A stretch of 64,000 bases of DNA from the NCBI GenBank assembly GCA_963713705.1, contig CAVQMY010000033.1, positions 20,203 through 84,202 of the forward strand. Direction: 5' to 3'. Under the pieces are notes generated by a model. It saw nothing but the letters and a program-made list of their open reading frames with translations, searched no databases and was not told the DNA's origin. Of this stretch, positions 2,918 to 22,053 are shown in pieces. Both the position numbers and the translations under genes were made by a program. This stretch comes from an uncultured Verrucomicrobiae bacterium. Lineage in GTDB: Bacteria; Verrucomicrobiota; Verrucomicrobiia; Palsa-1439. Each line of letters begins with the position of its first letter. Positions within the stretch are counted from its first letter, which is position 1.

Positions 2918-3389
2918 ATCCTGCGTCGAAGAGAACGTACAGACGTGTAACATTATCACCCGAACGGGTCAAGCCGCGCTTCCGTCGTTGGCCAGACCGG
3001 GCCACGCGTGTCCCCTGTAGCCGCACGGCTTCAGCCTGCGTCGGCGCGATGTTGAAACGCGGCCCGATCCGCATTGTAGGGCGACCGGCCCGGTCGCCGT
3101 CTTCCGCTTGTACGGCAAGCGCTCGGCTCACCGCCGTATTCCCGCCATCCGAACTCCGTCCGCCGGTCTGCCCGGCCTTCTGGCTACTGGATTCTGGCTC
3201 CCGAATACTACCCGGTGCCATCCCCCGCTTGTGGCCTCAACTTGGGTTCGTTTTTGGCTTTGTTTTTGGATATTTCCACGCCGGCTTGCTCAAACTTGGG
3301 TTCGTTTGTATTTTTTACTTTTTCGACAGCCTCTCGACCACCCCCACCGGTTGTGGTACCCCCCCTCATTGTCAAAGAACGTTCCAACG

Positions 3390-5214: not shown

Positions 5215-5289
5215 GCGCCCACGCCCTCCTTCGCACTTCTTCTACACGATCTTACTTGCCACCGGAAGAAAAATCATCGATTTGGGCAA

Positions 5290-5590
5290 CAGGCCCCATT
5301 CATTCTGCAATTGCCGACGCTCCCACCGCCTCACAATTCACGGACCGCCGAGCTTGTCCGCCCGCCGGCGGATTGGCCCCTCAACAACTCGGCCAAAGAT
5401 TGAACACGCCGTTCCCTGTCCGCCATGGCCTCTCCCCGCTCCCGCCGAAACATCCTCGACATCTTCACCGCAACCCTGTCACACGCGGAGGTGTCGTGGT
5501 GGGTTAGCACTCGGTTAGCATACGCCTCTGGATCAGGCCTCTTCATTCTGCCACTGCCGACGCGCCTCACCGCCTCACAATTCCCGGACC
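5290..5590. repeat. Two ~57-bp direct repeats (5290-5346 and 5534-5590), about 85% identical
   Basis: caggcc..ttcattctgc..tgccgacgc..caccgcctcacaattc.cggacc occurs twice, 244 bp apart, in noncoding DNA next to the IS5 transposase start. Confidence 0.7.
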
Positions 5591-5728
5591 AGACCTTCCC
5601 ACGCCCGGCCTTGCCCGCCTCCGCCGGACTTGCTCGCCGAAGGCGAGTTGCCCGATTCAGCCCCTCCGGTTTCCCCTGTGTTCCAAATTCCGTCCCCGCT
5701 TCCACGTGGCATCTCCCGACCTCTGACG

Positions 5729-5820
5729 CCACACCATGATACCTCAGATTCTTATGTATCGACCTCCCGCCTCCAACTTTATTTGTCTCCACACCATGAT
5801 AGCTAAGATTCTTATGTATC
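5729..5820. repeat. 32-bp direct repeat with 60-bp period (5729-5760, 5789-5820) plus a partial third copy near 5835
   Basis: ccacaccatgata(c/g)ct(c/a)agattcttatgtatc, 30/32 identical. AT-rich. Followed by a small palindrome ATACCTttgatAGGTAT. Confidence 0.7.
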
Positions 5821-6008
5821 CGCCCGGTTCGGACGCCATGATACATACCTTTGATAGGTATCCGCATCATTCATCCCCCCACCACCGCACTGGTTTATGG
5901 ATAGCGCTATCCATAATCGTCCTGACGGTACGCCGGCCGAATTGGCGCAATAGATTGGATGTGAGCCTCCTTCTCACCGCCCGGCTGGCTGTCTCGGACC
6001 GCGCCCCA

Positions 6009-6152
6009 TCAACGGAAATACAGCTTTTCGATGACCAGTTCGGCCACGAGTAACCCCAAGACCCACAAGGAAGCCCAGAACACTAACCACAGCAGCCGCG
6101 TCAGCGGACGATCTTCGGTCGGAATCGCATGTTGGACGGTACGCATCTTCAT
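6009..6152 (-). CDS. Candidate small membrane protein (47 aa), below the ORF-track cutoff
   Basis: Manual translation gives MKMRTVQHAIPTEDRPLTRLLWLVFWASLWVLGLLVAELVIEKLYFR. GAGGTG lies 5 nt upstream of the ATG. One clear TM helix. Confidence 0.35.
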   Translation of the reverse strand: MKMRTVQHAIPTEDRPLTRLLWLVFWASLWVLGLLVAELVIEKLYFR

Positions 6153-6364
6153 GCCGCACCTCTAAGTAAATGTAGTCCCGCGCTCGCCGAAGTCAACCTC
6201 CGGCTTCACCAGCTCGATTGCATCAACTCCGACACGCGTTGACCGCACCACGCCCGACGATGGCGACCCCTTGTGGCCGATGTGACGCTGGACAGCCGGA
6301 CCGACCAGGTGTAGTAAGGCGATATGCCCAGGCCGGTGCATGGAGTGTTCGGGTGCGGTTCATA

Positions 6365-7171
6365 ATGAACCCGCACCGTATTCTCTGGTTGGGCCTCATC
6401 GGTGCCCTGACGCTGTCCTGCAACAGGGCGACGACCCGTGAGCCCCGCCTAGTGGAACAGGAGGAGGTCACGATCACCTGCGAACTCACCCAGCCGCCGA
6501 AGTGGTCGGACATCCCGGTGTTTGAATCGGCGAATGACTGCCAGGCCGCCACCGGTACGTATCACTACGTGCTCTGGTTGCCCGAGGGCTATCTGGCCGA
6601 CACCCAACGCCGCTGGCCCTGCCTGTTCATTGCGGACGCCTTGGGACACGCGAAAATGGGGAACATGGCCGTCTGGCTCAAGACCCGGGGCTACGTCGTC
6701 GTCATGCTTGTCGAATCCCAAAACGGTCCGTGGCCGCCGATCATCGGCAATTTCCTCGCCGCGCATGACGATGTTGTGCAGCGGGTGCGAATTCAAGAGG
6801 GGCTCAAGTTCGCCACGGGCTGCTCGGGCGGGGCGCGGGCCAGTTCCGTGTTCGTGCAAATCCGTCCGGGCTTTACAGGACTCATCCTGCAAGGGGCTGG
6901 TCTGGCGTACAAGACCAACGGCACATATATCGTGGCCGGGCTCCGGCGCACCCCGCCCATCTACGTGGCGATGACGATGGGCGATCGCGATAAGCGCGGG
7001 GGCGAGGTCGACGAAATGCGCCGCTGGATCGGGTCGTCGCATTTCCAATTGTTCCCGTTCCCCGGCGGCCATGAATGGGCGCCGACGGAAACGTTCGAGC
7101 ACGCCATCGCCTGGGTCGAAGACAAGGTCCGTGAAACCCCCGAGCCCCCACCACCTCAGAAACTCAATTGA
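6365..7171 (+). CDS. Secreted/lipoprotein alpha/beta-hydrolase (esterase-like)
   Basis: Start chosen at MNPHRILWLGLIGALTLSC (lipobox-like LSC). Nucleophile elbow GCSGG. Downstream GDRD and GGHEW are consistent with a Ser-Asp-His triad. Confidence 0.6.
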   Translation: MNPHRILWLGLIGALTLSCNRATTREPRLVEQEEVTITCELTQPPKWSDIPVFESANDCQAATGTYHYVLWLPEGYLADTQRRWPCLFIADALGHAKMGNMAVWLKTRGYVVVMLVESQNGPWPPIIGNFLAAHDDVVQRVRIQEGLKFATGCSGGARASSVFVQIRPGFTGLILQGAGLAYKTNGTYIVAGLRRTPPIYVAMTMGDRDKRGGEVDEMRRWIGSSHFQLFPFPGGHEWAPTETFEHAIAWVEDKVRETPEPPPPQKLN

Positions 7172-7342
7172 CCGCCGCCCCCGGCACAACCGCTGCACAC
7201 ACCAACGTCCTTGCTTGTCAGCCCGGCAATTTCAAGTGGAGATGACCCTTCCGTTGGCGATGAGAACACTGTAGCCGCAAGCGTGACAAATCCAACCGCA
7301 GCGCATATACTCCGCGCAGCTACTGACCCGGGAGAACAAGAA

Positions 7343-8233
7343 ATGAGTGAGGTGTTTGCCATGAACGAGCCGCCACCCGTCCCACCCGCTGTCGATTTCA
7401 AGGACCGCCACGCCGGCCTCATCGGGTTCGGCATTCTCGTTATCATTATCGGGTGCCTCTGCGCCCTCTTCGTGCCGTTGGTGCTCCTCGGCCAAACGAT
7501 GTCCGCCAGGACAACCGGTACCCCTCCGAGCCTCCGCATGATGGTTCCAGCCATGATGACGTATGCCGTTATGGCAGTCGTGTTCATCTGGCTCGGAATC
7601 GGCTCAACCATGGCCCGACGCTGGGCGCGTGCGCTGTTGCTGATTGTCTCGTGGGCCTGGTTGGTGATGGGCATTTTCATGGTGGTCGCCATGGCGGTGT
7701 TCTTGCCTGCGTCTTTCGCTCACATGCCGTCTGGGGGACAGCCCGCGGCGTCCTCGGTGGTGGCTGTGATGATGATCTTCATGGTCGGCTTTTTAACCGT
7801 GACGTTCGTGATTCTCCCGGGCCTGTTGGTGTTGTTCTACCGCAGCCCGCACGTGAAGGCGACGTGCGATGCCCGCGACCCGGTGACGCGGTGGACCGAT
7901 GCCTGCCCGCTACCCGTCCTCGCGTTGAGCCTCCTTCTCGCCTATGGGGCGGTGTCGATGTTCCTTATGCTGCTCTGCTACCACGGCGTGATGCCGTTCT
8001 TTGGCTTCTTGCTGAGCGGTCTGCCGGGAGGAACATTGACTCTGGTCATCATTGCGGTATGGGCTTATTGCGCCTGGGCCACCTACCATCTCAATGTCAC
8101 CGGTTGGTGGACTGTCTTGATCGCGTTCGGGGTGATGCTCGTGTCTGCGGTGCTGACCTTTTCGCGGGTCGATCTCATGGACATGTCCCGGTTGATGGGC
8201 TATTCCGAACAGCAAATCGAGCAAATGCAGTAG
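7343..8233 (+). CDS. Polytopic membrane protein, unknown function
   Basis: Start at MSEVFAM, preceded by GGAGA. Multiple long hydrophobic segments. No family recognised. Confidence 0.55.
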   Translation: MSEVFAMNEPPPVPPAVDFKDRHAGLIGFGILVIIIGCLCALFVPLVLLGQTMSARTTGTPPSLRMMVPAMMTYAVMAVVFIWLGIGSTMARRWARALLLIVSWAWLVMGIFMVVAMAVFLPASFAHMPSGGQPAASSVVAVMMIFMVGFLTVTFVILPGLLVLFYRSPHVKATCDARDPVTRWTDACPLPVLALSLLLAYGAVSMFLMLLCYHGVMPFFGFLLSGLPGGTLTLVIIAVWAYCAWATYHLNVTGWWTVLIAFGVMLVSAVLTFSRVDLMDMSRLMGYSEQQIEQMQ

Positions 8234-8435: not shown

Positions 8436-10220
8436 GTGAACCGGATTCGTCTCCTCTCCGAGCAGGTCGCCAACCAGATCGCCGCCGGCGAGGTGGTCGA
8501 GCGGCCCGCCTCCGTCGTGAAGGAGTTGGTCGAGAACTCGCTCGACGCCGAAGCCCGACGCGTCACGGTCACCATCAAGAACGGCGGTCGCTCGCTCATC
8601 AATGTCGCCGACGACGGGTTTGGCATGAGCCGCGACGACGCGCTCCTCGCCCTCGAACGTCATGCCACCAGCAAAATTTCCAGGGCCGAAGACCTGCACA
8701 GCATCACGTCACTCGGGTTTCGCGGCGAAGCCATCCCGAGCATCGCCGCCGTCTCACGGTTCACGCTCACCAGCCGCGAACGGGGCACGTTGAGCGGGAC
8801 GCAAATCGAAATGGCCGGCGGAAAGATCCTGTCCGTCGCCGACATGGGCGCGGCGGAGGGAACCGTCGTGGAAGTGCGCAACCTGTTCTTCAATCTGCCC
8901 GCCCGCCGCAAGTTCCTGCGCTCGATCCCGACCGAGACCGCGCACATCGAACACATCGTCACCCTCTGCGCGCTCGCGCATCCCAATGTCGCGTTCAAAC
9001 TCGCCGTCGATGGCCGCGAGATCTTCAACCTCGCGCCGACCAACGACCTGGCGGGCCGCCTCCGGGAACTTTACGGCGTGCAACTCGTCGAGGAACTCCT
9101 CGCCGTCGAGTTGTCCCACGGCGATGTCCGCGTCACGGGCTTCATCGGGAAACCAGGCGTCAGCCGCGCGGATCGCCGTCAACAGCATCTCTTCGTCAAT
9201 CAGCGCCCCGTCGAAAGCAAGGGCATCAACTACGCCCTCCTCGAAGGTTATCACACCGCCCTGATGAAGGGAAAATTCCCCGTGACATTCCTGTTCATCG
9301 ACATCGACCCCGAGTTGGTCGACGTCAACATTCATCCCGCCAAACGCGAGGTTCGCTTTCGCGATGAATCGGCCGTGCGCCAGTGCGTGATCGATGCCGC
9401 CCGCGCCGCGCTGGAACCGGTGACGGCGGGACTCCATCCGGTGCAACGGGAAGGCTGGCCGCAGTCCCAGCAACGCATTGTCGGGCCACGACCGCATTGG
9501 TCGCCTGCGCCGCCATTGGCGTTGCGGGGAGAGGCCCCGGCGTCACCGTCCTCGCAACAATCCAATTTGATCGAGGTGCCAAGAAATCGCGGGGAGGGCG
9601 AAGCTCCTGCCGAGCCGCAGTTTGAGGTTCAAACGGAAGAAGGTTCGTGGCGGATTCTCGGCGTGATCGGCCAGCTCTACGTGCTCATCGAATCGCCCGA
9701 AGGCCTTGTCCTGATGGATCAGCATGCCGCGCACGAACGCGTCTTGTTCGAGAAGATGCTCCGAGAATTCGAGACCGATTCCGCCCCCGCGCAAAAGCTC
9801 TTGCTGCCTCTGACGCTTGAACTCGACGCCCGCGATGCCGCCTTCCTCCACGCCAACCAGAAGACGTTGCACAAGCTGGGCATCGGTGTCAGCGAGTTCG
9901 GCGAGAAAACGTTTCTGGTCGACGCATTGCCGCCGTATTTCCCGACCGCCAATCTGGCCCAGACCTTCCGCAATATCATCGACGAGTTGCGCCAAACGGG
10001 CGAAGAGATCCACACCCGGCGATTGACCGAGGACAAGATCGCCACCACCGTCTGCCGTCACGCGGTGAAAGCCCACGATCCGTTGCGCGGCGAGGAGTTG
10101 CGCGCGTTGCTCCAGCAACTTCACCAGTGCGAGTTGCCTTATACCTGTCCCCACGGTCGCCCGACCATGATCCAAATGTCCTACGCCGAGTTGGAGAAGA
10201 AATTCGGGAGGAAGGTATGA
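8436..10220 (+). CDS. mutL: DNA mismatch repair protein MutL (endonuclease type)
   Basis: GHKL ATPase N-terminus (AAGEVVERPASVVKELVENSLDA) and C-terminal endonuclease motif DQHAAHERVLFE. Confidence 0.95.
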   Translation: MNRIRLLSEQVANQIAAGEVVERPASVVKELVENSLDAEARRVTVTIKNGGRSLINVADDGFGMSRDDALLALERHATSKISRAEDLHSITSLGFRGEAIPSIAAVSRFTLTSRERGTLSGTQIEMAGGKILSVADMGAAEGTVVEVRNLFFNLPARRKFLRSIPTETAHIEHIVTLCALAHPNVAFKLAVDGREIFNLAPTNDLAGRLRELYGVQLVEELLAVELSHGDVRVTGFIGKPGVSRADRRQQHLFVNQRPVESKGINYALLEGYHTALMKGKFPVTFLFIDIDPELVDVNIHPAKREVRFRDESAVRQCVIDAARAALEPVTAGLHPVQREGWPQSQQRIVGPRPHWSPAPPLALRGEAPASPSSQQSNLIEVPRNRGEGEAPAEPQFEVQTEEGSWRILGVIGQLYVLIESPEGLVLMDQHAAHERVLFEKMLREFETDSAPAQKLLLPLTLELDARDAAFLHANQKTLHKLGIGVSEFGEKTFLVDALPPYFPTANLAQTFRNIIDELRQTGEEIHTRRLTEDKIATTVCRHAVKAHDPLRGEELRALLQQLHQCELPYTCPHGRPTMIQMSYAELEKKFGRKV

Positions 10221-13852: not shown

Positions 13853-16177
13853 TTACAAACTCGCGGCGACCTTCTCGACCGTATAGCACTCCAGGACGTC
13901 GCCTTCCTGGATTCCCGGAAAATTCTCCAGGCGCAACCCGCATTCGGAACCGGCCTTGGCCTCGCGCACGTCATCCTGGAAATGCTTCAGGCTGGCAATG
14001 CGGCCCTCATACTGGACGGCTTTGCGTCGTAACAACCTCACGCGGGCACTGCGCGCGATCCGACCATCCGTGACCACACACCCGGCCACCGGCGACCCCT
14101 TGGAAAGCTCGAACACCTTGCGGACTTCGGCATGACCGATGACGGCTTCCTTCGATTCCGGCTCCAACAGACCTTCCATCGATTCTTCCACCTGCTCGAT
14201 CAATTCATAGATGATGGTGTGCAACTTGATCTGCACGTTGGCGTGTTTGGCCGTGTCGGTGACGCCGCTCTCGGTCTTGACCCGAAATCCGATGATGACG
14301 GCTTCCGAGGCGCTGGCGAGCAGGACATCGTTTTCCGTGATGCTCCCGACCGCGCCATGGAGAATGTCCAGTTCGATCTTGTCGCTCTTCAGTTTGCGCA
14401 GAGAATCCGCGATGGCTTCCAGGGAGCCTTGCACATCGGCCTTGAGCACGATGCGCAGCTTCTTCATTTCGCCATCCTGGATCTGGGTCATCAGGTCTTC
14501 GAGCCGTGAACCGCGCGGTTGCGCCGTGGTTGATCCGCGGGCGTCCTGCTGGCGTTGTTCGCTGAGGGCGCGCGCCTCCTTGTCGGTCTTCATGACGTTG
14601 AACTCGAGGCCGGCCTCGGGCAGGCCGGAGAGCCCGACGATCTTGACGGGCGTCGAGGGCGGCGCTTCCTTGATGCGGTGGCCCTTATCGTTGACCAGCG
14701 CGCGAATCTTTGCCCAGAACGGCCCGCAGACGATGCCGTCCCCCACGTGAAGTGTTCCCTTGCGCACCAGGACCGTAGCCGTTGGTCCCAAGCCGGGCTC
14801 GATTTGCGCCTCGATCACATTGCCTTTCGCCGGCACCTTCGGGCTGGCTTTCAGTTCCATGATCTCGGCTTGCAACAAAATCATCTCCAGCAACGTGTCG
14901 AGACCCTTCTTCGTGGTCGCCGAAACGTCGACGGTGATGGTGTCGCCACCCCACGATTCCGCGCTCAGACCGTGTTCCTGCAACTGTTTCTTGACGCGAT
15001 CCGGGTTCGCCGTCGGCAGGTCGCACTTGTTAATGGCGACGAGAATCGGGACCTGCGCTGCTTTGGCGTGGCTGATGGCTTCGATCGTCTGGGGCATGAT
15101 GCCGTCATCTGCGGCCACGACCAGCACGGCGATGTCCGTGACGTTGGCGCCCCGGGCCCGCATTTTCGTGAATGCCTCGTGGCCGGGGGTGTCAAGGAAC
15201 GTGATGGTCTTGCCACCCGGAAGCGATACCACACTGGCGCCGATGTGCTGGGTGATGCCGCCGCTTTCGTGAGCGGCGACATCCGTCTTACGTATTGCGT
15301 CGAGCAACGAGGTCTTCCCATGGTCGACGTGGCCCATCACCGTGACCACGGGCGGGCGTGGCTTCAGATCGGTCGCTTGTTCGCCGACTTCCAGGGGTTC
15401 GACCTTCCGGGGCGGGGCGTGAACCATACCGGCCCCGCGCTCGCGCTTTTCCAACTCGAAGAGGAACCCGTGCCGCTCGCAAATCTTGCGGGCAATGTCT
15501 TCCCCGACGGTCTCGGTAAGATTGGCAAAAACGCTCATCTCCATCATCTCGGACAACAGCACGTGCGGCCTTACGCCGATGCGCTGCGCCAGTTCGCGCA
15601 CCACGACGGGCGGCTTCATCTGGATAACCTTGTTGCCCTTGTCATCAACAATGAAAGCGGGCTGTGACGGTCCCACTGGCAACGGTACGGGCTTGGGGGC
15701 CGGCGCCAGCGGCGGTGTTGGACGCGGAGCTGTCGTGATCTTCACCGTTGGCTGCGACCTCGGTGGCGTCGTCGGCTTCGGCGGCACAGCGGCGGGCGGA
15801 GACTTGGGCGGAATGGCCGGTGGTGGTGGTGACACCACCGCACTCGTTGCCACTTTCACCACCGGCGGTTTGGCAGGTTCGACAATGACCTTCGGCGGTT
15901 CGGTAGCCACGGGTGGTGGCGGCAACGTGGCAACCGCCGTCGTTGCCTCCGTCTTCCCGGCGAGTTCAGGCGCAGGGGAAGCCGGCGCGGCGATTGGTTC
16001 GGGTGCCGGAGGGGGCGGTGGAACGTACCCGTATTCCTTCTCGATCGATTCGGCGGTGATCTTATCGACCGTGCTGGAGTGACTCTTGACGGGATAATTC
16101 ATCACGTGCAGCTTGTCGATCATTTCCTTGTTCGACAGGCCGCACCGCTTGGCCAGATCATGTACCCGAATACTCAT
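13853..16177 (-). CDS. infB: Translation initiation factor IF-2
   Basis: G-domain motifs [20 protein letters not shown] and NKCD, with a Pro/Ala-rich N-terminal region. Confidence 0.97.
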
Positions 16178-17624: not shown

Positions 17625-17664
17625 CGGGAGGGGTTTACAATGCGCCGCGAATGAACCTGCCCAA
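17625..17664 (+). repeat. Repeat A (40 bp), identical to 21933-21972
   Basis: cgggaggggtttacaatgcgccgcgaatgaacctgcccaa. Consists of 26 nt upstream plus the first 14 nt of pgsA. No mismatch found by manual comparison. Confidence 0.9.
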
Positions 17665-18280
17665 CCGGCTCACCGTCGCGCGAATCGGCCTGACGGTGCT
17701 TTTCGTCATGGCGCTGCTCTTGCCGCCTCACGGTCTGGTACTCTCCCACTTCCCGTTTGGGAAAACGACGGCCCTGGTTATCTTTATCATCGCCAGCCTG
17801 ACCGATTGGTGGGACGGCTGGTACGCCCGCCGATACAAGATCGAGACCGCGTTCGGCGCATTGATGGATCCACTCGCCGACAAGGTCCTCACGACCGCCG
17901 CGTTCATCTGTTTCATCGAGCAGCCGAGCTATCGTGGCGCCAACGTGCCGTTGGTGCAGGCTTGGATGACGCTGGTGATCGTCGCGCGCGATTTTCTGGT
18001 GACAGGGTTGCGGCTGGTGGCCGGCCAACAGGGCGTGGTGTTGCGGGCCGAAGGGTTCGGCAAGCACAAGACCGTGTCCCAAATGGTCACGATTATCGTA
18101 ATCCTGATCGGTCTGGCAGTGCGCGAGGACTGGAAGTGCTTCGGCGTCGATTATGACCAGTTCAATGTCGCGTTTTCGCGCGTGGCTTTCACCCTGATGC
18201 TGATCACCGTCAGTCTGACGTTGATCTCCGGTATCATCTACTTTTTCAAGAACGGGCAGTTTTTCTTCCGCGATGCGTGA
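17651..18280 (+). CDS. pgsA: CDP-diacylglycerol--glycerol-3-phosphate 3-phosphatidyltransferase
   Basis: CDP-alcohol phosphatidyltransferase motif DWWDGWYARR...GALMDPLADK. Confidence 0.9.
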   Translation: MNLPNRLTVARIGLTVLFVMALLLPPHGLVLSHFPFGKTTALVIFIIASLTDWWDGWYARRYKIETAFGALMDPLADKVLTTAAFICFIEQPSYRGANVPLVQAWMTLVIVARDFLVTGLRLVAGQQGVVLRAEGFGKHKTVSQMVTIIVILIGLAVREDWKCFGVDYDQFNVAFSRVAFTLMLITVSLTLISGIIYFFKNGQFFFRDA

Positions 18281-18740
18281 GCGACTGATCAAGTTTCTGG
18301 CCACCGGGTTCGGCGTCGGCTATCTGCCGGTCGCGCCGGGCACGGACGGCTCGGTCGTCGGCGTCGGGTTCTGGTGGGCCCTGAACCAGGAACATCACCC
18401 GTGGCTGCGTGTCGTGTTTCTGGTGCTGGCCATCGGATTTGCAGTCTGGTGCGCGGGCGAAGCGTCCGACATCATGCACCATCCCGATCCACCCAGTGTG
18501 GTCATCGACGAGATCGTGGCCATGCCGCTCGCGCTGATCGGGCTGGGAACAAGGTGGTGGCAGGTCGCCGTGGGCTTCGCGATGTTCCGGCTCTTCGATA
18601 TCTGGAAGCCGTCCCCCATTCGCGACGCGCAGGATTTTTCCGGCGGGATCGGCATCGTGCTGGACGATCTGTTGGCGGCGGCTGCCGCGTGCGTGACCAC
18701 TCACGGCATCGTGTGGCTGGTCAGTTGGATGAAGCATTAA
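18273..18740 (+). CDS. pgpA: Phosphatidylglycerophosphatase A
   Basis: FGVGYLPVAPGT, IDEIVAMP and FRLFDIWKPSPIR motifs. Overlaps the pgsA end by 8 nt. Confidence 0.85.
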   Translation: MRERLIKFLATGFGVGYLPVAPGTDGSVVGVGFWWALNQEHHPWLRVVFLVLAIGFAVWCAGEASDIMHHPDPPSVVIDEIVAMPLALIGLGTRWWQVAVGFAMFRLFDIWKPSPIRDAQDFSGGIGIVLDDLLAAAAACVTTHGIVWLVSWMKH

Positions 18741-18994
18741 CCCCGAAGGCTTTCGGGGCTGAGCTTCGCGAGAAACTTTTCGAGCTGTCCGGTGTCGAAA
18801 TTGGCCAGCACGTGGCCGTCGATCACAATGGTCGGCACGTAACGCTGGCCCGATAACCGCTGCATTTCCTCGTCGGCAGCAGGGTCGTGGCCCACGTCGA
18901 TTTCCTGAAACGGGATGTCATGCGCCTTCAAATATTCCTTGGCATCGGCGCACCACCCGCACCATTGGCGTGTGTACAGCCTTACGTCCCTCAT
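18737..18994 (-). CDS. Glutaredoxin-like protein (CGWC)
   Basis: 85 aa with YTRQWCGWCADAKEYL and GQRYVPTIVIDG (the cis-Pro region of the thioredoxin fold). Confidence 0.8.
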   Translation of the reverse strand: MRDVRLYTRQWCGWCADAKEYLKAHDIPFQEIDVGHDPAADEEMQRLSGQRYVPTIVIDGHVLANFDTGQLEKFLAKLSPESLRG

Positions 18995-19007
18995 GATTTT
19001 TCCTTGT
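18937..19007 (+). repeat. Repeat B (71 bp), identical to 21983-22053
   Basis: The first 58 nt of the grx CDS (minus strand) plus 13 nt upstream are duplicated without mismatch next to serA. Confidence 0.9.
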
Positions 19008-19125
19008 TAATAGAATGCACAACATGACAGGAAGGTTTCACGAGGAGAAGATTTTTAGAGTATTATAGTTTTTAGAAGTTAATTTGGAAAAGTATTTAAG
19101 AAGGGGTTCCAGAGAGGTTTTGTCG

Positions 19126-19153
19126 TTGACAGATCAGACGTTTTTGCTAAGCT
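19126..19153 (+). promoter_or_regulatory. Candidate sigma70-type promoter for the islet rep operon
   Basis: TTGACA (19126-19131), a 16-nt spacer, then TAAGCT (19148-19153), about 130 nt upstream of rep. Pattern match only. Confidence 0.2.
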
Positions 19154-19282
19154 GTGCTTATTAGTAAACGACGTGTTCGTTCGGACTCTTACCGAAAATT
19201 ATTGCCGCAGATTAGCGACGTCGGACGCTGAAAAAGCGTTGTTAGGCGAACACCAAACAATCATCAATTGTGAGGTGTGTTT

Positions 19283-20104
19283 ATGCGGCAGTTTGATTTT
19301 CCGTCGGCGGGAATACATGTGGTTTACCGTCGGGATGACCTCTTCCTTTCCGCCGATCTGCTGTCTGATTTTGAAGACCACTACGTCGGCAGAGTTTCCG
19401 AGCGTGTCCTTCATGGGATGTTGGTGATCGCGCAGAACGTCGAGGCGATACGAGCGGCGGCCCATGTGAAGGGGGATGAAGCGACCTTCGGTACTTGGAC
19501 ATTTAAGCTACCCACGGATGAATTGGAGGTCCATATCCGGGACGTGTTGACCGATTCGGCGTTGTTTCGGCGCAAGCTGGTGCGGTTGACGGGTACTTGC
19601 CTGACGTGGGTGGTTGAATGGGGCAGGCGTGGCGGGCGCATCCATGGGCATTATGCGGCGGATGGGTGGCAGGATTTGGAGGCGGTCGAGAAAGCGAAGC
19701 AGGTGGGGAATGGGTTTGTGGGGCGTTGCAATATTAAGCGTCTGGGCGCTCCAGGCTATATGTGGAAGGAGATGGGCAAGGGGGCAGGCCGTCGGGGGCT
19801 AGGTTTTCATCTGATGGGTTCGCACGGGGATTTCAAGGGGCGTTCGGTCATGCGGGATTTCCTCATTGATTCGCCAATGGCGGAGTGTCGTCGTCTGGCG
19901 TGGGGAACGCGGTTTACGGGGGAGCCGCATGGTCGGATTTGGGAGCGGGCGAGGGATTTGTATGCCGCGTGGTCGGCGGGAAACTTGGACTTGGGGGCCG
20001 ATTACGATCGATTTCGCGGGGGGATGTCGGGCGGGGGAGATGCGTGGGAGGGGGACAATCAGTCGTTGGATGCGGGCTTTAACGTGGAGGATTTTGAGCA
20101 ATGA
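19283..20104 (+). CDS. HUH-superfamily rolling-circle replication initiator-like protein
   Basis: Three ordered motifs: FGTWTF (motif I, FxTLT-like), VVEWGRRGGRIHGHY (motif II, HxH) and GYMWKEMGK (motif III, YxxKxxxK with a single Tyr). ATG at 19283 is preceded by TGAGG. Confidence 0.5.
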   Translation: MRQFDFPSAGIHVVYRRDDLFLSADLLSDFEDHYVGRVSERVLHGMLVIAQNVEAIRAAAHVKGDEATFGTWTFKLPTDELEVHIRDVLTDSALFRRKLVRLTGTCLTWVVEWGRRGGRIHGHYAADGWQDLEAVEKAKQVGNGFVGRCNIKRLGAPGYMWKEMGKGAGRRGLGFHLMGSHGDFKGRSVMRDFLIDSPMAECRRLAWGTRFTGEPHGRIWERARDLYAAWSAGNLDLGADYDRFRGGMSGGGDAWEGDNQSLDAGFNVEDFEQ

Positions 20105-20370
20105 AAAGGGAAAAGAGGAAATATTGTGCGGGTTGCGGTGTTGAAATTACAGGGGGCCTTGTAGCGGGTGGCCCGTCGGAGGAGGAGCAGTACTGCGCGC
20201 AATGTGGCGGTGCGGAAGTGTTGCAGGCGCAGGAGCTTTGCGACGAAGTACAGGGGTTGTTGCCGAATGCGTGGTGTGGGACTAGGGCACGGCTCTTGGC
20301 GTCGGGTCGTGCGTCTGGGAAGGGCGGCGGGTCCCCTGTTCACAGGGTGCGGCCCCCCGCGAGACAATAG
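20101..20370 (+). CDS. Small zinc-ribbon protein (CAGC...CAQC), coupled to rep
   Basis: ATGA overlap with the rep stop. Ends at TAG 20368-20370. The same frame continues for 33 codons to a second copy of the Rep C-terminal tail (stop 20467-20469). Confidence 0.45.
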   Translation: MKREKRKYCAGCGVEITGGLVAGGPSEEEQYCAQCGGAEVLQAQELCDEVQGLLPNAWCGTRARLLASGRASGKGGGSPVHRVRPPARQ

Positions 20371-20691
20371 AGGGGTGTTTGTGTGCTGTGTTTCTGTACC
20401 TGGGCTGCTTACGAGGGGGAAGACCAGTCCTTGGACGCGGGTTTTAACGTGGAGGATTTTGAGCAGTGAGGTGGGCGTTGCGGATGCGGGGTGGCGAAGA
20501 CCCCGCGCAGGCCCGCATGCGGGACGCGCGGGGCTACCGATAAGGAGGGGTGTCTGCTTGCAGGGTGTTGTTGTAAATGGTGCCGTTGGGTTCGTTGCGT
20601 CGCGTGTTGGACAGGAGCCATCGGAGCGCAGCAATTGGTGTGACAGAACTGCGAAAACATCTGGACGCTGCGCACGTTAATGTGAAAAACG

Positions 20692-20955
20692 TCAATCCCG
20701 TTCTTCGACATCGTTAATTGTGTCACCCTGTTGGAATGCCTCAGCGAAACATCGAAATTGACTGGGGAAACAATGATAGAACTGATGGCAGGCTCGGCAC
20801 AGGGTGACTCCATTATGAACGTCGTGTCGAAGGGCGGGATTGACGTTTTTTCCGATGATGTGCGCGGCGTCCAGATGTTTTGTCGTGCCGCAGTTCTGGC
20901 ACAGCCAATTGTCTCGCTCCATTACGGCTCTTGTCCAACGTTGATTGTCGTTCAT
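20692..20955 (-). CDS. HNH endonuclease (87 aa)
   Basis: CQNCG...LDAAHII...HNGVTLCRACH, the HNH/zinc-finger signature. AAGGAG lies upstream of the ATG at 20955. Confidence 0.75.
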   Translation of the reverse strand: MNDNQRWTRAVMERDNWLCQNCGTTKHLDAAHIIGKNVNPALRHDVHNGVTLCRACHQFYHCFPSQFRCFAEAFQQGDTINDVEERD

Positions 20956-21190
20956 CCGCTCTACTCCTTTATTTTCAAGGTAGGGAGTAGAGTGTATGAA
21001 CGATCGTAGGGAGCGACGCTTGGGGTCTTTGTCGTTTCGTGTTGTTGGCTGAGGGGCTGCGAGAGCGCTAGCCCGCAATAGAAAAGAAGCGAATGTTTAT
21101 ACGGGTAGAATGTCGATTGTTTTTGGTTGTTATTTCTCGAAAACGGGGGACAATCAACCTGAAGTCTGGCCGAACGGATTGGGAGTAATA

Positions 21191-21613
21191 ATGCTAACGC
21201 CAAGAGAAAACGGAAAACGATGTAGGCTCGCCCTTGGAGAATTTCTCAAACCGCCATTGGGACCGTATGCGCTGGACGGCAGGACGCTGATTTTCAATGG
21301 CAGAGAGATATTCGTGCTCTACTCTAGTTTCCAAGTAAGTACATCGCAATGGTGGTATGGCATTCAGCAAGAGGAATGGGAAGAGTGGGGGGACAGATTT
21401 GTGGCATTTCTGATGAGAGACCGAAGAGATGTGAATTTCGTGATGCTGGACCCGAAGGAGTCGGGGACTCTACTTGGCAAGTGCCGCCACGACTACAACG
21501 GACAAAAGGAAATGCATATCCGAATACGGGAAGGCGGAAGAGTGTACTTCGTTGAGTGGCAGAACTTTTCTTTGGCTGGCAGAGTGCAGCCGTTGAAGGT
21601 TTTGTTGACGTAG
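21191..21613 (+). CDS. Hypothetical protein (140 aa), no recognisable family
   Basis: GGAG lies 6 nt upstream of the ATG. AT-rich codon usage unlike the flanking core genes. Trp-rich segment SQWWYGIQQEEWEEW. Confidence 0.45.
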   Translation: MLTPRENGKRCRLALGEFLKPPLGPYALDGRTLIFNGREIFVLYSSFQVSTSQWWYGIQQEEWEEWGDRFVAFLMRDRRDVNFVMLDPKESGTLLGKCRHDYNGQKEMHIRIREGGRVYFVEWQNFSLAGRVQPLKVLLT

Positions 21614-21649
21614 TTAGACGGCTATATTGGATTTGAAACGGAGAAAAAC

Positions 21650-21865
21650 ATGACAATCATCACCACGGTCGGAGAATTGCAGAAAGAGTTGAAAGGGCTA
21701 CAGCGAGACACGCCGATTGCCGTTGCCGTACCTGAAGAAAGACAAACGGCAGTAGGTGAAAATTTCACTGTTGGGAAGTCTGGTCTATGTAATGAAATGA
21801 AACTCGCAGTCGGCGTGGAAAGAACAGGAGATGCCGCCAAGGTTTGGATAATCGGGGTCAATTGA
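21650..21865 (+). CDS. Hypothetical protein (71 aa)
   Basis: GGAG upstream. 36 nt downstream of the previous ORF on the same strand. Confidence 0.4.
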   Translation: MTIITTVGELQKELKGLQRDTPIAVAVPEERQTAVGENFTVGKSGLCNEMKLAVGVERTGDAAKVWIIGVN

Positions 21866-21932
21866 CTGGTTGCTAGAGCACGAGAGCGCTAGCGTCTCGT
21901 AACGAAAAGCATCCTGTTTGAGATTCTGTTTA

Positions 21933-22053
21933 CGGGAGGGGTTTACAATGCGCCGCGAATGAACCTGCCCAAGATCATGTTCCCTTGGCATCGGCGCACC
22001 ACCCGCACCATTGGCGTGTGTACAGCCTTACGTCCCTCATGATTTTTCCTTGT
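21933..22053 (+). repeat. Chimeric joint A'(21933-21972)-filler gatcatgttc-B'(21983-22053)
   Basis: The pgsA start region is fused head-to-head to the grx start region, with the intervening 1.27 kb absent. Leaves truncated pgsA' and grx' reading frames. Confidence 0.9.

Follow-up and report, generated by a model that had tools for sequence, protein, structure and literature searches.

Results

Copies of host gene ends border an islet between grx and serA

The sequence analyzed here, called the window, is a stretch of 64,000 nucleotides (nt) from an uncultured Verrucomicrobiae bacterium (Palsa-1439; GCA_963713705.1, CAVQMY010000033.1:20,203-84,202, forward strand). Between the glutaredoxin gene grx and a serA-type dehydrogenase gene, it carries an islet (~19007-21982), a genuine integrated copy of a small mobile element of Verrucomicrobia that had not been described before; the islet encodes a putative rolling-circle replication initiator of the HUH type, named Rep below. 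The host genes, delimited by open reading frame (ORF) calls and Pfam matches, and the two pairs of repeats, A/A' and B/B', are arranged as follows.

17625..17664, + strand: A, native pgsA 5' region (26 nt upstream and 14 nt of coding sequence), source of A'; exact 40-nt repeat
17651-18280, + strand: pgsA ORF (CDP-alcohol phosphatidyltransferase)
18273-18740: pgpA
18737-18994, - strand: grx ORF (glutaredoxin)
18937..19007, + strand: B, left repeat copy, 13 nt of grx upstream sequence and the first 58 nt of its coding sequence (gene on the - strand)
21933..21972, + strand: A', 40-nt pgsA-derived host patch inside the right end of the element; exact repeat of A
21983..22053, + strand: B', right repeat copy, a truncated grx 5' end joined to native grx-serA intergenic DNA
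start at ~22124: serA-type dehydrogenase

A repeat search and the raw sequence of the window agree that B (18937-19007) and B' (21983-22053) are identical at 71/71 positions, and A (17625-17664) and A' (21933-21972) at 40/40. The sequence gatcatgttc (21973-21982) separates A' from B'; the interior from A to B measures 1,272 nt and the period from B to B' 3,046 nt. In 64 kb, exact matches of these two lengths (40 and 71 nt) are far beyond chance. A preliminary description of this DNA had given both repeats with the same coordinates and zero mismatches, and its reading of B as 58 nt of grx coding sequence with 13 nt upstream, and of A as 26 nt upstream with 14 nt of pgsA, is borne out by the ORF boundaries. 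The insertion point lies in the grx 5' untranslated region (UTR), 13 nt upstream of the start codon. B terminates in the target TTTCCTTG, with its CTTG at 19003-19006, and the CTTG of B' occupies 22049-22052.

B' contains a truncated grx' ORF (MRDVRLYTRQWCGWCADAKGT followed by a stop; window 21975-22042, - strand), whose frame is closed by a TGA (21975-21977) within the terminus motif of the element. A transcript from the native grx upstream region would run on through A', antisense to the ribosome-binding site and the start codon of pgsA.

The islet architecture recurs at six host loci

The islet was compared with the contigs of Rep homologues, with genome contigs, and with 30 metagenome loci that carry the right-end hairpin described below; individual loci are designated by L numbers. 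Its architecture recurs in more than 12 independent Verrucomicrobia contigs from metagenome-assembled genomes (MAGs) or metagenomes, at six host loci, including a 698-kb contig. In the left half, host DNA ending in CTTG (usually in ...TTTCCTTG) is followed by N8-ATGCACAA, the Rep gene, a small ORF, an HNH gene on the opposite strand, and optional cargo. The right half usually comprises the hairpin CACGAGAGCGCTAGCGTCTCGT plus AACG, at least one GAGCYTGTTT-like motif, a (C/A)TGTT(C/T) boundary, the direct repeat, and host DNA. The repeat duplicates host DNA from the left side of the insertion and likewise ends in CTTG; the elements measure 2.2-3.6 kb. The corresponding parts in the window are listed here.

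19007..19022, + strand: element left end TTAATAGAATGCACAA (N8 + ATGCACAA), 16 nt; shared motif at the same distance from CTTG
19283..20104, + strand: Rep, 273 amino acids (aa), taken as an HUH-type rolling-circle initiator on alignment, fold, and motifs (FGTWTF, RIHGH, YMWKEMGK)
20692..21078, - strand: HNH nuclease, 128 aa; Pfam HNH_2/HNH and PHROG HNH families
21879..21900, + strand: hairpin CACGAGAGCGCTAGCGTCTCGT, 6-bp stem, then AACG; conserved across relatives
21914-21919 and 21926-21931, + strand: two CTGTTT motifs, terminus-type copies, read from the raw sequence
21973..21982, + strand: element 3' terminus GATCATGTTC, CATGTTY motif; conserved boundary motif

Both junctions are assembled in L009 (the 698-kb contig), in L011 (57 kb), and in four NCBI MAG assemblies (L050-L053), and the same host-element-repeat-host structure is present in the JGI/ENA contigs L004, L014, and L019. 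A repeat equivalent to B' was found in every relative whose contig holds both junctions. The preliminary description had proposed a discrete mobile insertion between grx and serA, which these data support, and had kept an assembly chimera as an option; recurrence of the architecture in many independent assemblies, among them large contigs and four separate NCBI assemblies, rules out a chimera for the family.

So far the family ranges over Verrucomicrobia from peat and soil, and the small contigs fetched with Rep homologues are mostly fragments of integrated copies. In the closest relative (L050-L053, host DNA 94% identical), the same grx site is taken by a derivative that lacks Rep. This element (L050, reverse-complemented 5271-7507) is apparently non-autonomous: it keeps the left end, the HNH gene, the hairpin, and A', and its cargo encodes a 239-aa MUG113/T5orf172 (GIY-YIG-like) protein and a 277-aa unknown protein. 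The hairpin and GAGCYTGTTT also occur on contigs with no detectable Rep or HNH (L025-L028, L033, L039 on a 77-kb contig, L041, and others); these loci may represent isolated (solo) right ends, elements that are non-autonomous, or members of a more extensive repeat family. In L003 (3066-13948), from the species of L009, the left junction leads into a Rep gene with a frameshift, and in place of serA there are ~10 kb of unrelated genes (FtsK/SpoIIIE, Macro domain, and others); this stretch is either a larger composite island or a misjoin.

The left junction is base-precise at CTTG

At all 15 distinct left junctions (15/15), CTTG lies directly 5' of the conserved left end of the element. The six host loci concerned are the grx 5' UTR, the 3' coding ends of the genes for citrate synthase, an O-antigen-ligase/TPR protein, a DUF47/PhoU_div protein, and a PTS-EIIA protein, and the 5' UTR of a cytidylyltransferase-like gene. 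The base that follows CTTG is A in L045 and C in L050, which places the break after the G. The left-end motif is equidistant from CTTG in L002, L004, L008, L009, L011, L014, L019, L022, and L045, and the distance is a few nt longer in L001 and L050. Judged from this conservation, TTAATAGAATGCACAA would represent the 3' half of the Rep nick site or origin, and the nick in B would fall between 19006 and 19007. The grx and citrate synthase targets have CATGATTT(T)CCTTG in common.

The origin of phage phiX174 reads CAACTTG/ATATTAATAAC (the slash marks the nick or junction), with the annotated origin at the A. Junctions of the family read CCACTTG/ATATCTAAATGC and TTCCTTG/TATATAAGATGC, and that of the window TTCCTTG/TTAATAGAATGC. 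CCTTG/TATATAAG and CCACTTG/ATATCTAA resemble the phiX174 nick site; the junction consensus of the elements is CCTTG/TWA, to be compared with CAACTTG/ATA in phiX174 and with the IS91 target CTTG. Such a one-sided, base-precise CTTG junction is a hallmark of the phiX174/pC194/IS91 group of HUH enzymes.

Rep is a predicted single-tyrosine HUH nuclease

Rep homologues number 22 among 5.8 billion clustered proteins, and a profile scan of 1.84 billion proteins yielded 32 representatives; an exact look-up of the window Rep sequence returned no record, and the IMG/VR viral contigs searched held no relatives. Motif conservation was assessed on an alignment of the 22 members. In motif I (FGTWTF), T73 is invariant. 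In motif II (R119-x-H121-x-H/Q123), R119 and H121 are invariant, and H123 is a Gln in one subgroup, as in HUQ Reps. In motif III (Y159-M-W-K162-E-M-G-K), Y159 and K162 are at least 90% conserved and E163, G165, and K166 are invariant. The order and spacing of motif I, HUH(Q), and YxxK are those that define the HUH Rep superfamily. Rep has a single conserved Tyr: the second tyrosine of the YxxKYxxK motif of phiX174 gpA is a glutamate.

A confident AlphaFold model of Rep (pLDDT 81.8, pTM 0.80) gave 61 viral matches at E<=1e-3 in a Foldseek search of BFVD. Names are attached to only a few of them: these are replication initiators of Microvirus and, from tailed-phage contigs, two proteins labeled 'replication associated'. 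PF23343 REP_ORF2-G2P (best 4.4e-5) and phrog_3584 'replication initiation protein' (4.4e-4) are matched by 7/22 members; a sequence profile search of the PDB with Rep returned nothing. Aligned to phiX174 gpA with hhalign, FGTWTF is paired with FDTLTL, and EWGrrgGRIHGH with EYGtanGRLHFH. The protein consists of the nuclease domain only (273 aa), without an SF3 helicase domain. On its motifs and modeled fold, we take it to be a divergent, helicase-less, single-tyrosine HUH Rep, with DNA nicking as its predicted activity.

An empty site and a circular or tandem unit

In a lineage whose glutaredoxin is 85% identical to that of the window (24 contigs), the site is empty and reads ...CATGATTTTTCCTTG/TGCATCGCGCCCTAACATCGC... 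without interruption. All seven neighborhoods shown of those 24 contigs (7/7) are unoccupied, L056 reading ...CATGATTTTTCCTTG/TGCATCGCG.... The empty-site sequence corresponds to B' of the window and its right flank without the element. A search of related genomes for an islet-free locus, suggested in the preliminary description, thus had a positive outcome: the target on the serA side of grx is uninterrupted in a related lineage. In this same lineage (L056-L062; reverse-complemented L056 ~5276-5600), serA is a 46-aa N-terminal remnant with a GH77 gene directly after it, so that serA is lost from the otherwise conserved grx-serA-GH77 synteny.

The 2,270-nt contig L015 has a 70-nt terminal overlap and represents a 2,200-nt unit made up of the L014 element and exactly one 71-nt repeat, 100% identical. 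Its path leads from the element right end through the repeat to the element left end, and it is the sole circular or tandem contig found; it could be a free circle or a tandem array. For the window, a 3,046-bp circle composed of the element and one B had been predicted, and in a relative this prediction is matched directly by L015.

Tandem arrays of different elements were observed at the citrate synthase and DUF47 sites (L004 4118-8707, L019 269-4640, L022 2904-3130, L045 1240-1400). Their order is element right end, gene-fragment repeat, next and often different element, repeat, gene. L004 contains three citrate synthase 3' fragments, and L019 carries the left-end segment (ATATATATAAGATGCACAACTGAACCG...) three times in tandem.

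Right end and host-derived patches

The hairpin CACGAGAGCGCTAGCGTCTCGT is identical in L004, L009, L010, and L050 despite 40-52% Rep identity, and it is carried by the 30 metagenome loci, which were retrieved with a pattern that held the stem fixed. It lies 30-90 nt upstream of the (C/A)TGTT(C/T) boundary in most copies, the canonical form being absent from L014 and L011; the fold is predicted, with unremarkable thermodynamic z-scores. Motifs of the GAGCYTGTTT type follow downstream of the hairpin in most loci. The boundary between element and repeat is CATGTTC or CATGTTT in L002, L008, L009, L012, and L014, and GGATACCATGTTT in L050. The 10 nt between A' and B', earlier regarded as random filler, are not random: they hold the CATGTTY terminus conserved in these six relatives.

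In L050, the 40 nt of A' recur without change; their right boundary is that of the window copy, and the sequence on their left is closely similar. They are followed by tgcGGATACCATGTTT, which is homologous to the window GATCATGTTC, and by a 178-nt repeat; the left end, HNH gene, and right end of L050 are closely related to those of the window. A' is thus a host-derived insertion within the element right end, 10-16 nt from the terminus, and was probably inherited from a common ancestor of the two elements. Every host examined, the empty-site lineage among them, has the A region conserved in front of pgsA, so A is native host DNA. An analogue of A' is present in L009, where a 46-nt patch from the middle of serA (44/46 matching) is located 7 nt from the terminus, and L002 has 12 extra bases at the patch position relative to L014. 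The A'-B' joint had been explained as the remnant of a copied pgsA-pgpA-grx block with its interior deleted. The variety of repeats and patches misfits this explanation: in relatives that occupy this site the repeats measure 57, 71, 122, 178, and ~207 nt, most relatives are without a pgsA patch, and one has a serA patch instead.

The sequence CGTAACGGGCTTGTTTTGCGG, 5' of A, was considered as a decayed right end, which would make A' a 3' transduction. This candidate was rejected, as CAACGGGCTTGTTTTG and A are conserved in all hosts, including the empty-site lineage and the distant L009.

Repeat lengths and boundaries

The direct repeat differs in length and identity between copies.

Window: 71 nt, 100% identical
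L014: 71 nt
L009: 57 nt (698-kb MAG contig)
L011: 76-77 nt (57-kb contig)
L004: 121 nt, 98% identical
L008: at least 122 nt
L012: ~207 nt (L008 element, 99.96% identical)
L050-L053: 178 nt, 90.4% identical

The L050 repeat copies have mismatches as close as 8 nt to the junction, and their longest perfect block is 30 nt; the right copy is ~90% identical to the resident grx and to the window grx alike. From the 100% identity of the window repeats, either a very recent event or a chimera had been deduced. The former fits, the 178-nt repeat of the closest relative being 90% identical, and the latter does not, given the recurrence of the architecture. The diverged L050 repeat was also considered as proof of import and was set aside, since import and ancient divergence in situ fit equally.

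For targets in 3' coding ends, a repeat starting exactly at the stop codon was examined and rejected: in several copies the apparent stop (TTA in CTGTTA) and the CCTGTTTG after it are element-type terminus motifs, so that the host ORF probably extends into the element and has no native stop at the boundary. The citrate synthase tails beside elements vary by lineage, ending in ...KRTKQD, ...RETNRA, or ...KRNKQA before the stop, against ...SHSVIL. These variants (L004 ~8587-8620, L019 ~330-360, L022 ~3000-3040) contain the CCTGTTT motif of the element, which suggests that the citrate synthase ORF runs into element-derived DNA.

Composition and further genes of the islet

The GC content is 0.42-0.53 at 18950-19550, 0.46-0.52 at 20600-21950, and 0.57-0.64 over the Rep gene, the host flanks being mostly at ~0.55-0.65. 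The islet had been called AT-rich, which is correct for the first two segments but not for the Rep gene (57-64% GC). The islet stands out more by its strand asymmetry than by its AT content: over ~19250-21950 the + strand has a strong excess of G over C (skew up to +0.47) that is confined to the element, the skew of the flanks being ~0. Besides the features listed above, the islet contains the following.

19062..19090, - strand: promoter-like site TTTCCA-17-TATAAT, outward into grx; consensus scan
20101..20370, + strand: zinc-ribbon protein, 89 aa, overlapping the Rep stop codon; weak Zn-ribbon Pfam matches
20406..20469, + strand: duplicate of the Rep 3' end, 84% identical to 20041-20104; repeat search and tblastn with Rep residues 254-273
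21110..21865, + strand: cargo, ORFs of 167 aa (21110-21613) and 71 aa (21650-21865)

The preliminary description had assigned an HUH-type Rep and an HNH nuclease to the islet and had noted the lack of a tyrosine or serine integrase. Both statements hold: no tyrosine or serine recombinase was detected with Pfam and PHROGs among the islet proteins or in any of the related loci fetched. The islet ORFs have no capsid or structural matches in Pfam or PHROGs, and PADLOC returned nothing on the islet. A small ORF occupies the position of the zinc-ribbon gene after Rep in L001, L004, L012, L014, and L017. The HNH gene is conserved in the family on the strand opposite Rep and lies between Rep and the hairpin in most relatives. 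The only NCBIfam match of the window HNH is the HNH domain of the RNA-guided IscB, below threshold (E 5.5e-5, 22 bits against a cutoff of 175), which we read as probable generic HNH similarity. The duplicated Rep 3' end (20406-20469) is a rearrangement scar, and an inverted partial HNH copy at 20654-20710, found in the repeat search, is a second internal one.

The two cargo ORFs have no significant matches in Pfam, PHROGs, PADLOC, or NCBIfam and no counterparts in relatives; other elements hold different cargo in this position. A degenerate half-hairpin is located at ~21059-21073, upstream of the window cargo, and L009 has a variant second hairpin at 9895-9925. The cargo is thus flanked by two right-end-type hairpins, as if derived from a two-element fusion or a read-through. 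The promoter-like site at 19090-19062 may serve grx, because the insertion parts this gene from its native upstream DNA.

Discussion

A model of Rep-mediated integration at CTTG

We propose, with a probability of roughly 0.6, that the islet together with B' is the integrated copy of a small rolling-circle element that inserts by CTTG-specific, Rep-mediated integration; among the three mechanisms offered in the preliminary description, this is the one favored by the comparative data. From the observed architecture and its recurrence, the CTTG junctions, the Rep motifs and predicted fold, the circular or tandem unit, and the empty site, we infer that Rep does the cutting and joining. Repeat lengths that vary between related elements at one target (122 nt and ~207 nt in elements 99.96% identical), the lack of an integrase in every copy, and the G>C skew limited to the element also speak for this reading. 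As an HUH nuclease of the phiX174 gpA or single-stranded DNA (ssDNA) phage type with one catalytic tyrosine, Rep would nick one strand after CTTG, at a site whose left half is ...TTTCCTTG (host sequence when integrated) and whose right half is the element's own N8-ATGCACAA. It would then insert the element by strand transfer at chromosomal mimics of the left half, here in the grx 5' UTR. The mobile unit would extend from nick to nick, its 3' end being composed of the hairpin, the TGTTY terminus, and B', which duplicates the host sequence lying 5' of the target. Once integrated, this duplicated flank would form the long direct repeat and the target gene would stay whole; a 3,046-nt circle would result if the unit were copied out between the nicks in B and B'.

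The carriage of target-adjacent host DNA would explain why perfect repeats of host gene sequence bracket the islet, and a nick-to-nick unit would account for the direct repeat, the one-repeat circle, and the seat in coding 3' ends without gene truncation. The weakest step concerns the origin of the repeat and of the patches: their variability may result from imprecise, replication-coupled processing of the 3' end, by template switching or read-through. This would be the simplest account, and it has parallels in the target duplication reported for AAV (adeno-associated virus) Rep and in the 'fuzzy ends' and duplications of varying length of Replitron-1.

A further proposal, more doubtful than the mechanism itself, is that the family constitutes a new class of integrative rolling-circle replicon with a 'split origin'. 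The element would hold the 3' half of the nick site and the host would complete it; moving with a copy of the flank upstream of its target, it could occupy gene 3' ends, such as that of citrate synthase, or 5' UTRs and leave these genes active, with long and variable duplications like those of AAV generated by a helicase-less, single-tyrosine, microvirus-type Rep and accompanied by an HNH protein. More speculatively still, the pgsA patch of the window and the serA patch of L009 are oriented for antisense RNA from the displaced grx upstream region and might give the element a handle on host expression.

Several observations weigh against Rep-mediated integration. DNA nicking by Rep is a predicted activity only. 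The window Rep itself has no Pfam, PHROG, or NCBIfam match; its fold matches in the PDB are non-significant (circovirus and geminivirus Rep at E ~0.1); and its sequence similarity to phiX174 gpA is weak (hhalign probability 6.6%). Exact TTTCCTTGT 9-mers stand unoccupied at window positions 16123 and 52060 (+ strand) and 44634 (- strand), so target choice needs context beyond the 9-mer. IS91-type insertion makes no target duplication, and the long repeat would therefore need an extra, hypothetical step. TGTTY is found after the host patch, not before it, unlike the prediction of a simple 3' read-through. A second CTTG pseudo-nick, tried as the left boundary of the repeat, fits the window, L014 (TTCCTTG/G in grx codons ~19-21), and L011 (CACTTG/G) but not L008, L009, or L012. 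Finally, an existing identical repeat of 57-207 nt could permit RecA-dependent excision and reintegration, and L015 fits RecA excision and the Rep route alike, as it fits a circle and a tandem alike.

Alternative explanations

The strongest competitor is a Campbell-type capture, which we hold to be unlikely and yet deserving of consideration. In this scheme, a rolling-circle plasmid carrying a host patch (A'-terminus-B') would have integrated by RecA recombination between B' and grx, Rep serving only to replicate the free circle. The repeats are long enough for RecA: identity is 100% across the 71 nt of the window and across lengths between 57 nt and 122 nt or more in L008, L009, L011, L012, and L014. 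A unit with exactly one repeat, such as L015, is what Campbell excision predicts. However, homology leaves unexplained why the right edge of the host-derived segment coincides with CTTG in each of the 15 junction types, which come from six unrelated loci, and the first acquisition of the patch is unaccounted for as well. Repeat lengths differ between near-identical elements, and the L050 copies, at 90.4% identity, would be a poor RecA substrate if the insertion is recent, divergence in situ being possible.

Less probable again is integration by another enzyme: HNH, through a homing-type break and its repair, or a recombinase that the host or a helper supplies in trans. Rep would then be irrelevant to insertion. 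The HNH gene is kept in almost every copy and adjoins the right end, the Rep-less L050 retains HNH and both ends, and the element encodes a Zn-ribbon protein of unknown role. Against this, double-strand break repair in HNH homing yields no direct repeat and needs an occupied donor allele, no recombinase accompanies any copy, and a one-sided precise junction at a phiX/IS91-type tetranucleotide is an HUH signature; L050 is accounted for if a derivative that is itself non-autonomous was mobilised in trans. An assembly artefact, in which the assembler either linked a free 3-kb circle to the chromosome by way of shared k-mers or collapsed or duplicated the repeats, may be dismissed almost entirely: both repeats are perfectly identical and the short-read contigs L002, L008, and L012 break at or in the repeat, but the contigs cited above assemble both junctions or show the same structure, and the diverged (90%) repeat of L050 cannot be a k-mer join.

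Relation to known systems

Integration driven by HUH Rep enzymes is well studied in IS91/ISCR, IS200/IS605, Helitrons, AAV, and the TrwC relaxase. To our knowledge, none of the bacterial systems among these unites a microvirus-type Rep, a one-sided precise CTTG junction, and a long, gene-sparing target duplication, and no account of such elements came up in our literature searches. Should the mechanism be confirmed, the family would link the replication initiators of ssDNA phages and plasmids with rolling-circle transposons, would provide a bacterial counterpart of AAV-type integration with target duplication, and would explain how a 2-3-kb element lives inside the coding ends of housekeeping genes. 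These elements also matter for the annotation of MAGs: at conserved loci they leave truncated copies of genes and fuse genes to element DNA, and short-read assemblies break at them. The family has few members (32 representatives in 1.84 billion proteins) and is confined so far to peat and soil Verrucomicrobia, so its general importance is uncertain.

Integrase islets that carry a replacement gene end in attP are alike in outcome, with a direct repeat of a host gene end and an intact target gene. They differ in that the family is without tyrosine or serine recombinase, that its repeat length varies between near-identical elements, and that its six targets share only ...CTTG.

With phiX174 gpA and the Microviridae, and also with initiators of the inovirus gpII type, the family shares the best fold matches and the nick-site similarity to CAACTTG/ATA. 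The motifs of gpA and Rep correspond as FDTLTL/FGTWTF, EYG..GRLHFH/EWG..GRIHGH, and YVAKYVNK/YMWKEMGK. Unlike Microviridae, the family has no capsid or virion genes, a Rep about half the size of gpA with a glutamate for the second tyrosine, and chromosomal copies that are not at a dif-like site. Because structural genes are absent, the element is not a microvirus provirus.

In AAV, the HUH Rep proteins Rep78/68 integrate the genome at AAVS1, a chromosomal mimic of their own nick and binding site, and a target duplication has reportedly been described for this process in a 2009 study (cited in PMC6049929). The family is similar in that the target ...TTTCCTTG equals the 5' half of the unit junction in the circular or tandem form and in that 57-~207 nt are duplicated, presumably through Rep. 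AAV differs as a eukaryotic virus with an SF3 helicase domain and replication from hairpin telomeres, the family Rep being a nuclease domain only.

Replitron-1, an HUH-Rep transposon of Chlamydomonas, likewise encodes a Rep without a helicase and inserts in a fixed orientation on the 3' side of a short target; its right end has a palindrome and is 'fuzzy', with sequence from beside the parental copy, and its target-site duplications vary in length (PMC10288648). It differs in being eukaryotic and in having terminal direct repeats, a dinucleotide target, and short duplications; the likeness drawn here is one of features.

The IS91 family inserts beside CTTG/GTTC abutting oriIS and has a GTTC cleavage site next to a palindrome at terIS; it forms ssDNA circles, frequently terminates imprecisely and thereby mobilises flanking DNA, and produces no target duplication (PMC13181058). 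With IS91, IS801, and IS1294 (ISCR), the elements described here share an HUH enzyme, two different ends without inverted repeats, and orientation-specific insertion at CTTG. The tetranucleotide stands at every left junction; at the right end most copies have a hairpin upstream of a CATGTTC/T-type boundary, a candidate cleavage site, and host patches occur there. The differences are that none of the 22 Rep members has a Y2_Tnp or Zn_Tnp_IS91 Pfam match, the protein having one tyrosine and 273 aa; that the origin end is upstream of the rep gene, not downstream; that HNH and Zn-ribbon genes are present; and that all copies with both junctions have a direct repeat of 57-~207 nt, IS91 having none. 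The element works like an IS91-type transposon or an integrating rolling-circle replicon, and it is by its transposase type and its duplication that it falls outside IS91.

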